1,786 nt of DNA. Source: Escherichia phage alpha3. A program made the translations under genes and the position numbers. Shown here piece by piece: positions 1,210-1,786 of this stretch. The notes under the pieces were generated by a model. That model saw only the letters and a program-made list of their open reading frames with translations, searched no databases and had not been told where the DNA came from. Within the stretch, counting starts at the first letter, position 1, and each line of letters starts with the position of its first letter. The stretch lies in sequence record M25640.1. One strand, written 5' to 3'.

Positions 1210-1226
1210 TTCCCTAAACCCTTATG

Positions 1227-1265
1227 AGACTCTTGCTTCAACGAAACGAAGTAGGAGTCTTTTTT
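1227..1265 (+). terminator. Rho-independent-terminator-like hairpin with U-tract; Shine-Dalgarno AGGAG (1253-1257) embedded in the 3' arm
   Basis: 13-bp stem (1227-1239 pairs with 1248-1260; 11 Watson-Crick plus 2 G-U pairs), 8-nt loop AACGAAAC, followed by TTTTT (1261-1265) and then ATG at 1266. Same layout as the phiX174 hairpin GCCTCCAAATCTTGGAGGCTTTTTTATG before gene A, as I recall it. Confidence 0.5.
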
Positions 1266-1409
1266 ATGAAACCAGCTCATCGCCTCTATCATCCTGTGCT
1301 TGGTTCTTGGTTGTTTAAGTGCCCCGTTTATGTTCGTTATGAGTCCCTTCATCACGGTCGCCTCATTAAGGTTCGTGCTGTTCGTGACCTTTCCCGCGTC
1401 AGCAGTTGA
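1266..1409 (+). CDS. Hypothetical small basic protein (47 aa), candidate leader ORF
   Basis: ATG at 1266 sits 8 nt after AGGAG (1253-1257) and directly after the U-tract, at the position equivalent to the phiX174 gene A start. It reads MKPAHRLYHPVLGSWLFKCPVYVRYESLHHGRLIKVRAVRDLSRVSS, then TGA at 1407-1409 (9 K/R, 4 H, 2 D/E). I recognise no homolog; expression is unproven. Confidence 0.35.
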   Translation: MKPAHRLYHPVLGSWLFKCPVYVRYESLHHGRLIKVRAVRDLSRVSS

Positions 1410-1633
1410 TTGCCAATCCTAAAAATTGCTTTGACGTTGTCATTGCTGAGATTGACGTTACTCACCTTTCTGTCACTTGGTATGATTTTGAAGCTGAAGA
1501 GTATGCTGAGTGTGATTCCGGCACTATGGAGCTTGTTGTTTCTCAGGTAAATTCTGGCGAGGTTATTCGCTCATCTGAAGACCTGTTTGTTGATGTTGAT
1601 GATATGGAATGGCCTTATGAAATTGCGGAGTAA
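1406..1633 (+). CDS. Hypothetical highly acidic protein (75 aa, TTG start)
   Basis: ORF from the six-frame track. The TTG start at 1406 overlaps the TGA stop of the preceding ORF (TTGA); no independent SD. 19 Asp/Glu versus 2 Lys/Arg. TAA at 1631-1633. An alternative internal ATG at 1526 has no SD. Coding status uncertain. Confidence 0.3.
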   Translation: MIANPKNCFDVVIAEIDVTHLSVTWYDFEAEEYAECDSGTMELVVSQVNSGEVIRSSEDLFVDVDDMEWPYEIAE

Positions 1634-1636
1634 GTC

Positions 1637-1726
1637 ATGGAAACTGTTATCGGAAAATTTATTGCTCTGGCTATTGTTGCTCTTATGCTGTATGGAATTG
1701 CCTGTTTGATTCGGAGGTTTCCGTGA
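1637..1726 (+). CDS. Hypothetical 29-aa hydrophobic single-helix membrane peptide
   Basis: ATG at 1637 is preceded by GGAG (1627-1630) at 6-nt spacing. It reads METVIGKFIALAIVALMLYGIACLIRRFP, then TGA at 1724-1726. An 18-residue uninterrupted hydrophobic core is flanked by K7 and R26-R27. Too short for the supplied ORF track; found by manual reading. Confidence 0.4.
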   Translation: METVIGKFIALAIVALMLYGIACLIRRFP

Positions 1727-1786
1727 AATATTTTAGTTTGGTAGATGAACATTATGCTTACTGCCCTGATACAAGGATTTTGCACA
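1723..1786 (+). CDS. 5' end of next gene (partial; GTG start), possibly replication initiation protein A
   Basis: GTG at 1723 is preceded by a strong SD, GGAGG (1713-1717), at 5-nt spacing and overlaps the upstream stop (GTGA). It is open to the window end: (M)KYFSLVDEHYAYCPDTRILH. There is weak resemblance to the phiX174 A N-terminus MVRSYYPSECHADYFDFERIE (shared H, Y and RI at equivalent spacing), and gene A is expected after H. Only 21 codons are visible. Confidence 0.4.
   Translation, partial: MKYFSLVDEHYAYCPDTRILH

Follow-up and report, generated by a model that had tools for sequence, protein, structure and literature searches.

A stretch of 1,786 nucleotides (nt) of Escherichia phage alpha3 (sequence record M25640.1), here called the window and numbered from its first letter, contains in the region between genes H and A a short open reading frame (ORF), named ORF2, for a peptide of 29 amino acids (aa). 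ORF2 is probably, at a rough probability of 0.6, a real and translated membrane-peptide gene of the alpha3-like microviruses (genus Alphatrevirus), and it occupies the middle of a three-ORF accessory cassette, with ORF1 on its 5' side and ORF3 on its 3' side. If the reading in which the same segment encodes a second, overlapping peptide is counted in, as that reading includes ORF2, the gene is still more likely to be real. As ORF2 is missing from the phiX174 and G4 lineages, its role is taken to be accessory. By itself, an ORF of such a kind is not remarkable and does not exceed chance; the support is comparative.

Anatomy of ORF2

The peptide gene and its start signal are as follows.

1637..1726, + strand: ORF2, 29-aa hydrophobic peptide METVIGKFIALAIVALMLYGIACLIRRFP; ATG 1637-1639, TGA 1724-1726
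1627..1630, + strand: GGAG Shine-Dalgarno (SD) sequence of ORF2, within the final ORF1 codons

The ORF, its SD and the 6-nt spacer to the ATG (TAAGTC) are exactly as described in the initial annotation, which was made from the sequence alone. Among the 32 distinct nucleotide sequences compared, GGAG is present 6 nt upstream in 28, and the other four have GGGG or GGAA.

An 18-residue hydrophobic core had also been proposed. It is found in alpha3, where the uncharged core F8-I25 spans 18 residues, the Kyte-Doolittle (KD) mean over 19 residues is 2.43 and F8-I25 has a position-independent Hessa sum of -3.6 kcal/mol, but it does not extend to most relatives. In these, residue 23 is Arg, and thus the uninterrupted uncharged core is of 15 residues. 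Cores of 18-19 residues occur in few variants, and the 18 residues of alpha3 are exceptional. Over the variants, the KD 15-residue mean is 2.5-2.9 and the Hessa 19-mer sums are -2.3 to +1.2 kcal/mol.

The suggested C-terminal Arg-Arg anchor survives in part. The C-terminal side keeps a net positive charge throughout: +2 or +3 beyond residue 22, compared with 0 in residues 1-7, in 24/24 peptide variants, which include both types of C-terminal tail. However, R26 is variable (R/W/L/S/D/G/N), and the codons CGG-AGG (Arg26-Arg27) double as the GGAGG SD (1713-1717) of ORF3. The positive-inside charge asymmetry is, in other words, present but partly confounded by this SD.

Conservation and the reading frame

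For comparison, 52 loci were gathered from GenBank, IMG/VR, JGI metagenomes and Logan/ENA assemblies, 51 of which reach ORF2. In each of these the ORF is intact, with an ATG start and a length of 28-30 aa. They represent the 32 distinct nucleotide sequences and encode 24 variants of the peptide, and the ATG is invariant. Thus, the conservation among related phages that the initial annotation had asked for is observed. ORF2 has also been called independently in phage Lilleven (QBZ71503.1) and in many Logan/ENA contigs; at the loci where the gene callers omitted it, the SD is GGAA or GGGG and not GGAG. The replacements (I5V, F8L, A12V, I13V, V14I, A15S, L16F, M17I, I21V, A22S/T/V, C23R and I25V) are conservative, of the I/V, F/L and A/V kind, while the tail is variable yet always basic.

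Because pairwise Nei-Gojobori ratios of non-synonymous to synonymous differences (pN/pS) could not separate the ORF2 frame (frame 0) from frame +1, they were superseded by site-class tests. Over codons 1-25, the variable sites number 10, 2 and 10 at codon positions 1, 2 and 3, and both position-2 changes are from Ala to Val. When the same changes were placed at random, frame 0 showed an excess of synonymous changes (P=0.005-0.036) and preservation of hydropathy (P=0.0015-0.0075). The corresponding values for frame +1 are weaker (0.07-0.17 for synonymous changes and 0.02-0.10 for hydropathy), and frame +2 is rejected. Codon usage gives a log-likelihood per codon of +0.15 in frame 0, whereas frames +1 and +2 have -0.52 and -0.28, respectively, and the third-position T fraction of ORF2 is 0.52 vs 0.50 in the known genes. 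Both the site-level tests and the codon usage favour frame 0. Purifying selection at the amino-acid level acts in the ORF2 frame (P ~0.002-0.04), and there are signals in frame +1 too.

An additional membrane-targeted product, as had been suggested, is therefore likely, given the conservation in 51/51 loci, the conservative replacements and the fitting codon usage. The specific roles named along with it (toxin, lysis peptide or regulator) are speculative, and ORF2 belongs to no family of Pfam, NCBIfam, PHROG or PADLOC.

A coupled three-ORF cassette

ORF1, ORF2 and ORF3 are present in the H-A region of every relative. The other elements of the cassette are listed below.

1226..1266, + strand: terminator-like hairpin with a T-run; a 14-pair stem directly 3' of gene H
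1266..1633, + strand: ORF1, 122 aa (120-154 aa among relatives); ATG 1266
1713..1717, + strand: GGAGG SD of ORF3, made by ORF2 codons Arg26-Arg27
1723..1786, + strand: 5' part of ORF3 (58 aa in whole); GTG start, alpha3 nt 523-699, running past the window

ORF1 and ORF3 are unambiguously coding and under purifying selection. Their in-frame pN/pS is 0.27 and 0.10, respectively, against 1.0-1.8 in the off-frames, and the variable sites are concentrated at third positions; of the three ORFs, ORF3 shows the strongest constraint. The AlphaFold2 (AF2) model of ORF1 has a predicted local distance difference test score (pLDDT) of 90.5, and ORF3 is predicted to fold into three beta-strands and one helix (pLDDT 76.6). 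Fold searches with both gave no significant match, and neither did sequence searches with ORF3. In the present record, ORF1 is broken into 1266-1409 and 1406-1633 (pieces of 61 aa and 75 aa) by a 1-nt difference near window position 1393 (alpha3 X60322 nt ~193), where there is one C fewer than in the resequenced alpha3 (DQ085810) and in all relatives. The missing C is probably a sequencing error of the old alpha3 record. A separate 1-nt gap (alpha3 ~nt 230) likewise splits ORF1 in St-1 (GQ149088).

The three ORFs are closely joined. The ORF1 stop (TAA, 1631-1633) is followed by one codon (1634-1636) and then by the ORF2 ATG, a gap of 3 nt, and in 31/32 distinct sequences the stop codon of ORF2 overlaps the start of ORF3 (GTGA/ATGA). 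This geometry is kept despite a 3-nt indel and two unrelated C-terminal tails of ORF2 (…LIRRFP vs …LI[SDGN]R[TIS]L[KR]). All three ORFs are annotated, as hypothetical proteins, in Lilleven (MK629527).

It was also seen that ORF1 and ORF2 share one frame, with only the invariant TAA and one codon between them (1631-1636). That codon is always hydrophobic (GTC, ATC, ATT, GTT or TTT), its middle T being invariant in the 32 sequences. ORF1 and ORF2 may have descended from one ancestral gene, of which the same-frame layout would be a relic.

In one ENA contig of 761 nt, P0022, residues 1-22 of ORF2 are fused in frame to residues 5-58 of ORF3. The fusion is consistent with a 26-nt deletion and comes from a single short metagenomic contig, so that it is either a real variant or an assembly error. 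If real, it suggests that the start of ORF2 is in use and that the products of ORF2 and ORF3 work jointly at the cytoplasmic face. The frame-0 peptide may, as this fusion hints, be a membrane anchor for the 58-aa ORF3 protein.

Such tight coupling raises the question of whether ORF2 is translated purely as a relay, carrying ribosomes from ORF1 to the ORF3 GTG, with a functionless peptide. The conserved stop-3nt-start and NTGA overlap geometry fits such a role, as do the location of the ORF3 SD within ORF2 and the mostly weak GTG start of ORF3. A relay, however, should tolerate any sense codons, yet hydropathy is preserved (P=0.0015-0.0075), position-2 changes are avoided and the positive C-terminal bias is maintained across two unrelated tail types. 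Since hydropathy and charge asymmetry are preserved, a pure relay role is contradicted, and it is considered very improbable.

The expression of the cassette has to be viewed in relation to the hairpin at 1226-1266, which carries AGGAG (1253-1257), the ORF1 SD, in its 3' arm. The stem is conserved in 12 genomes, with no covariation. No internal + strand promoter was found; a good promoter-like site is present only at alpha3 696-725 (TTGACA-18-TATATT), which is 3' of ORF3 and upstream of gene A. The intrinsic terminators of phiX174 are known to be leaky, including T_H in the H-A region (bioRxiv 10.1101/2020.03.05.979765). By analogy, the cassette is plausibly expressed at a low level from read-through late transcripts.

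Downstream of the promoter-like site, up to alpha3 757, a GC stem (GCCCTC…GAGGGC) with a T-run lies just before gene A. It was read by eye from the alignment and was unreported by the terminator scan. The layout of alpha3 696-757 resembles the pA-T_H arrangement of phiX174. In NC35, a 29-nt deletion takes out the -10 element of this promoter.

If ORF2 is a gene, its expression might proceed as follows. The cassette would form the 3' end of those late mRNAs whose transcription continues past the leaky, terminator-like hairpin that follows H. Ribosomes ending ORF1 at the TAA would initiate anew at the ORF2 ATG, 3 nt further on, aided by GGAG, and those ending ORF2 would pass to the overlapping ORF3 start (GTGA/ATGA). 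The product would be a peptide of ~3.2 kDa with one membrane-spanning helix and, by the positive-inside rule, a periplasmic N-terminus and a basic, cytoplasmic C-terminus. What is shown is the layout of the ORFs, their conservation, the constraint in frame 0 and the codon usage; translation, membrane insertion, topology and function are inferred. Most plausibly, the peptide would sit in the membrane as a partner or anchor of the cassette proteins, or would modulate a host inner-membrane function.

Evidence against the proposed gene, and a possible second constrained frame

Several observations weigh against ORF2 being a simple membrane-peptide gene. The SD is weaker in 4/32 sequences, and most variants have just 15 uncharged residues and Hessa 19-mer sums of ~0 to +1.2 kcal/mol. 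ORFs of this kind are also easily obtained: the + strand of the window holds seven with an ATG, an SD and at least 25 codons, three of them off-frame within gene H. All three forward frames are open through the ORF2 segment, and the persistence of the ORF is thus weak evidence. The pairwise pN/pS fails to separate frame 0 (0.34) from frame +1 (0.23), while that of frame +2 is above 2. The cassette lies downstream of a terminator-like hairpin, which also occludes the ORF1 SD. There is no ORF2 homologue of known function and none outside the alpha3-like microviruses. Finally, the diversity of ORF2 is higher at codon position 1 (0.142) than at position 3 (0.072) and position 2 (0.007), which is atypical of a simple gene, and since its third positions are conserved far above those of matched ORF1 and ORF3 sites, something else must also constrain the DNA.

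The third-position diversity of 0.072 compares with 0.21 in ORF3 and 0.32 in ORF1, that is, the synonymous sites of ORF2 are 3-4 times more conserved. Of its 14 third-position T sites, 12 are invariant (P<0.0001 in base-matched resampling against ORF1 and ORF3). A second ORF lies across this zone.

1617..1709, + strand: 30-codon ORF in frame +1, MKLRSKSWKLLSENLLLWLLLLLCCMELPV; TGA 1707-1709; overlaps the end of ORF1 and most of ORF2

This ORF is a candidate overprinted gene, or else a by-product. Each possible transition in ORF2 codons 2-24 was classed by its effect in frames 0 and +1, with the following outcome.

Synonymous in frame 0, synonymous in frame +1: 4/4 sites variable, diversity 0.33
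Synonymous in frame 0, non-synonymous in frame +1: 8/21 sites variable, diversity 0.053
Non-synonymous in frame 0, synonymous in frame +1: 8/25 sites variable, diversity 0.108
Non-synonymous in frame 0, non-synonymous in frame +1: 1/19 sites variable, diversity 0.006

The frame-0 effect is seen both at sites synonymous in +1 (p ~0.02) and at sites non-synonymous in +1 (p ~0.02), with a combined value of ~0.004. The frame +1 effect gives p=0.003 and 0.02 by the Mann-Whitney U (MWU) test, and 0.039 and 0.056 by Fisher's test. In the controls, ORF1 and ORF3, no effect of the alternative frame was found (p 0.15-1.0) and the annotated frame alone matters; control sites that are synonymous in the annotated frame and non-synonymous in the alternative one have diversities of 0.34 (ORF1) and 0.22 (ORF3). 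Constraint in both frames is consistent with the signature expected of overlapping genes, the key class being of only 4 sites.

It may thus be asked whether the segment codes twice, for ORF2 in frame 0 and for a 30-aa Leu-rich peptide in frame +1 (ATG 1617 to TGA 1709), overprinted in the manner of lysis gene E in gene D; ORF2 would be real in this case too. In all 32 distinct sequences the +1 ORF is intact and so is its ATG, the zone of low diversity coincides with this ORF, the two-by-two transition test shows a +1 effect that is missing from the ORF1 and ORF3 controls, and E has the same +1 relation to D. As in an overprinted pair, both ORFs are open in all 32 sequences and the two-frame constraint is absent from the control genes, but the +1 start signal and the whole length of the product are not conserved. 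The SD of the +1 ORF is weak and varies (GGAA, GGAT or GCGT, 7 nt upstream). Radical changes occur in the N-terminal third (nine residues) of the peptide (R4W, S5G/N, K6N and S7L), where the two most variable sites of the segment lie, and changes in its core are rare but radical (L to P, L to S, E to G and C to F). Moreover, the +1 codon-usage score of -0.52 per codon is like that of an off-frame, the uncharged run is of 13 residues with a Hessa 19-mer sum of ~+2 kcal/mol, third-position-T-rich genes automatically yield Leu-rich +1 frames, and the key contrast rests on just 4 doubly synonymous sites.

Because of these limits (the 4 sites, the N-terminal changes, the SD, the codon usage and the 13-residue run), dual coding is treated as a rival or an extension of the membrane-peptide gene and not as the main conclusion. 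It is serious but unproven, and on balance unlikely, though by a smaller degree than the other alternatives. Likewise, it is doubtful that the 90-nt segment encodes a pair of hydrophobic micro-peptides that overlap, of 29 aa (frame 0) and 30 aa (frame +1), within an unannotated accessory cassette of the alpha3 clade.

Caution comes from the known genes of alpha3, which have T at 50% of third positions and whose off-frames readily give hydrophobic ORFs. A 41-codon hydrophobic ATG ORF (MNIMLTALIQGF…) lies at alpha3 545-670 (partly in the window, 1745-1786), in the +1 frame of ORF3. It is open in 15/15 GenBank records though the pN/pS of its frame is ~1, which cautions that composition alone can keep hydrophobic off-frame ORFs open.

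Another reading of the extra constraint is that the segment is a conserved cis-acting nucleic-acid element which happens to be open, neither small ORF being of importance as a peptide. Such an element could be a structure in the mRNA that controls how ORF3 is translated, or a DNA element akin to the 'reduction sequence' of the phiX174 H-A region, a region for which a cis or trans-inhibitory DNA function has been reported (PMC8310164). The unusually low diversity, which extends to the four-fold degenerate sites, agrees with this. In alpha3, a 10-bp helix can also form between 1635-1644 (UCAUGGAAAC) and 1717-1726 (GUUUCCGUGA), which joins the start codons of ORF2 and ORF3 and is a possible translational-coupling switch; in most relatives, however, it has one mismatch, and it shows no covariation. 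The fold z-scores are -1.56 (RNA) and -0.37 (DNA), a compensatory change is present in 1/32 alifold pairs, and the ORF2 segment has neither an Rfam match nor a + strand promoter. Variation is codon-periodic, with position 2 nearly invariant and replacements of the I/V, F/L and A/V kind, codon usage fits frame 0, and the variation at doubly synonymous sites is at the neutral rate, which is not expected of a sequence or structure element. A cis-acting element in place of a peptide gene is accordingly improbable. RNA or DNA structure was rejected as the main cause of the conservation, on the weak z-scores and the lack of covariation.

The reader of the sequence alone had not noticed the three-ORF cassette, the SD within Arg-Arg or the extra constraint that is consistent with the +1 ORF.

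Genomic setting

The window is identical (100%) to bacteriophage alpha3 (X60322 / NC_001330) and spans the origin of that record. The neighbouring features in the window are given below.

1-72: end of gene G
100-117: G-H hairpin 1, CTGCCC/GGGCAG
156-176: G-H hairpin 2, GGAAGGCG/CGCCTTCC
208-1200: gene H, with its stop at 1200
1201-1786: alpha3 nt 1-586, the first three-quarters of the 758-nt H-A region

No gene is annotated in the H-A region of alpha3, St-1, phiK or the Rokyta-collection records. In a search of 50,697 phage records by DNA and tblastn, the region was found in 26 alpha3-like records only. In phiX174, the H-A intergenic region has a length of only 63-64 nt (PMC8310164).

The G-H intergenic region (73-207) is GC-rich and contains two perfect hairpins. 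Its DNA fold z-score is -1.88, and it gave no match in Rfam. It is presumably the mapped site of the primase-dependent complementary-strand origin of alpha3, St-1 and phiK.

Implications

The Bullavirinae (phiX174, G4 and alpha3) have textbook genomes, which are held to be completely annotated with 11 genes. ORF2 has been annotated once as a "hypothetical protein" (in Lilleven) and is absent from the reference annotations. What is called the H-A intergenic region in the alpha3 clade is a conserved, presumably translationally coupled gene set with homologues found nowhere else, and it includes one probable membrane micro-peptide. In a lytic phage of ~6 kb, cassette genes of this kind might serve in host takeover, superinfection exclusion or anti-defence. 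If dual coding is true, this 11-gene phage group would gain three or four genes. The ORF2 segment is also a compact test case for the evolution of overlapping genes, in which two single-base mutations could separate the frames, and its interest will be higher if the two-frame constraint proves to come from an overprinted gene pair.

Relation to known proteins and systems

When ORF1, ORF2 and ORF3 were compared with Pfam, NCBIfam, PHROGs and PADLOC, nothing was found beyond weak hydrophobic-helix matches. A Pfam scan of ORF2 (E<=1) gave DUF7266 alone (E=0.56). In PHROGs, residues 2-26 matched phrog_4546, a profile of 36 positions, at E 0.003-0.026 and 15-18 bits; this is a weak match whose score is within the range for unrelated hydrophobic helices. 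ORF2 is below the length minimum of the large protein search and was queried as a tandem of variants, which returned the P0022 fusion protein only. Homologues of ORF1 and ORF3 are confined to microvirus contigs of ~6 kb, and an exhaustive profile search with ORF1 over 1.84 billion representatives gave three clusters. Searches of GTDB genomes, E. coli genomes and plasmids revealed no origin of the cassette outside the microviruses. A single divergent relative of the cassette turned up, on a Logan contig of 1962 nt, P0030, which encodes a distant ORF1 homologue of 129 aa (E 8e-16). A literature search over sources other than the original alpha3 papers and Rokyta et al. 2006 yielded no account of genes in the H-A region of alpha3.

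The closest counterpart of ORF2 is Lilleven QBZ71503.1 (MK629527, coding sequence 5769-5858), a direct orthologue of 29 aa that is ~90% identical and lies between ORFs of 122 aa and 58 aa. It is an automatic 'hypothetical protein' call.

Lysis protein E is another small phage protein of the same virus family with one N-terminal membrane helix, and its +1 relation to D is that of the candidate +1 ORF to ORF2. The initial annotation was right in placing E elsewhere: in alpha3, gpE (75 aa) is annotated at 2675-2902, inside D and in the +1 frame of D. ORF2, however, is less than half the size of E, is not inside D, has no sequence or profile similarity to it (Pfam Microvir_lysis) and is without the long basic C-terminal domain. 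In phiX174 E, a conserved proline in the membrane helix is required for the inhibition of MraY, and residues 1-27 of ORF2 contain no proline in 24/24 variants. Membership of the E lysis family was rejected, as there is no profile match, no helix proline and no location within D. Similarly, ORF2 was rejected as a holin, a kind of protein that has ~60-150 aa and a charged C-terminus and is partnered with an endolysin; alpha3 encodes no endolysin, and ORF2 has 29 aa.

Superinfection exclusion proteins offer a functional analogy only. Imm and Sp of phage T4 are proteins of 80-100 aa whose function has been experimentally shown. Like ORF2 as proposed here, they are accessory, non-structural phage products targeted to the inner membrane, but they are unrelated to it in sequence.

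Small membrane peptides with a single helix are well known in bacteria, and include the toxins TisB (29 aa), Hok, Ldr and Ibs as well as the regulators KdpF (29 aa), MgtS and AcrZ. ORF2 is of similar size, with a single putative hydrophobic helix and charged flanks, but is encoded in a lytic single-stranded DNA phage, inside a coupled three-ORF cassette. The type I toxin families (Hok/Gef, TisB, Ldr, Ibs and ShoB) gave no ORF2 match in Pfam or NCBIfam at E<=1-10, and membership of such a family was rejected on profile evidence. No antisense RNA partner of ORF2 is evident and there is no Rfam match, a result of a consensus scan that cannot exclude a small RNA; the sole promoter-like site on the - strand (1443-1416) is upstream of ORF2 and directed away from it. 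Judged by its sequence, ORF2 appears to resemble the small single-pass membrane peptides in architecture only.
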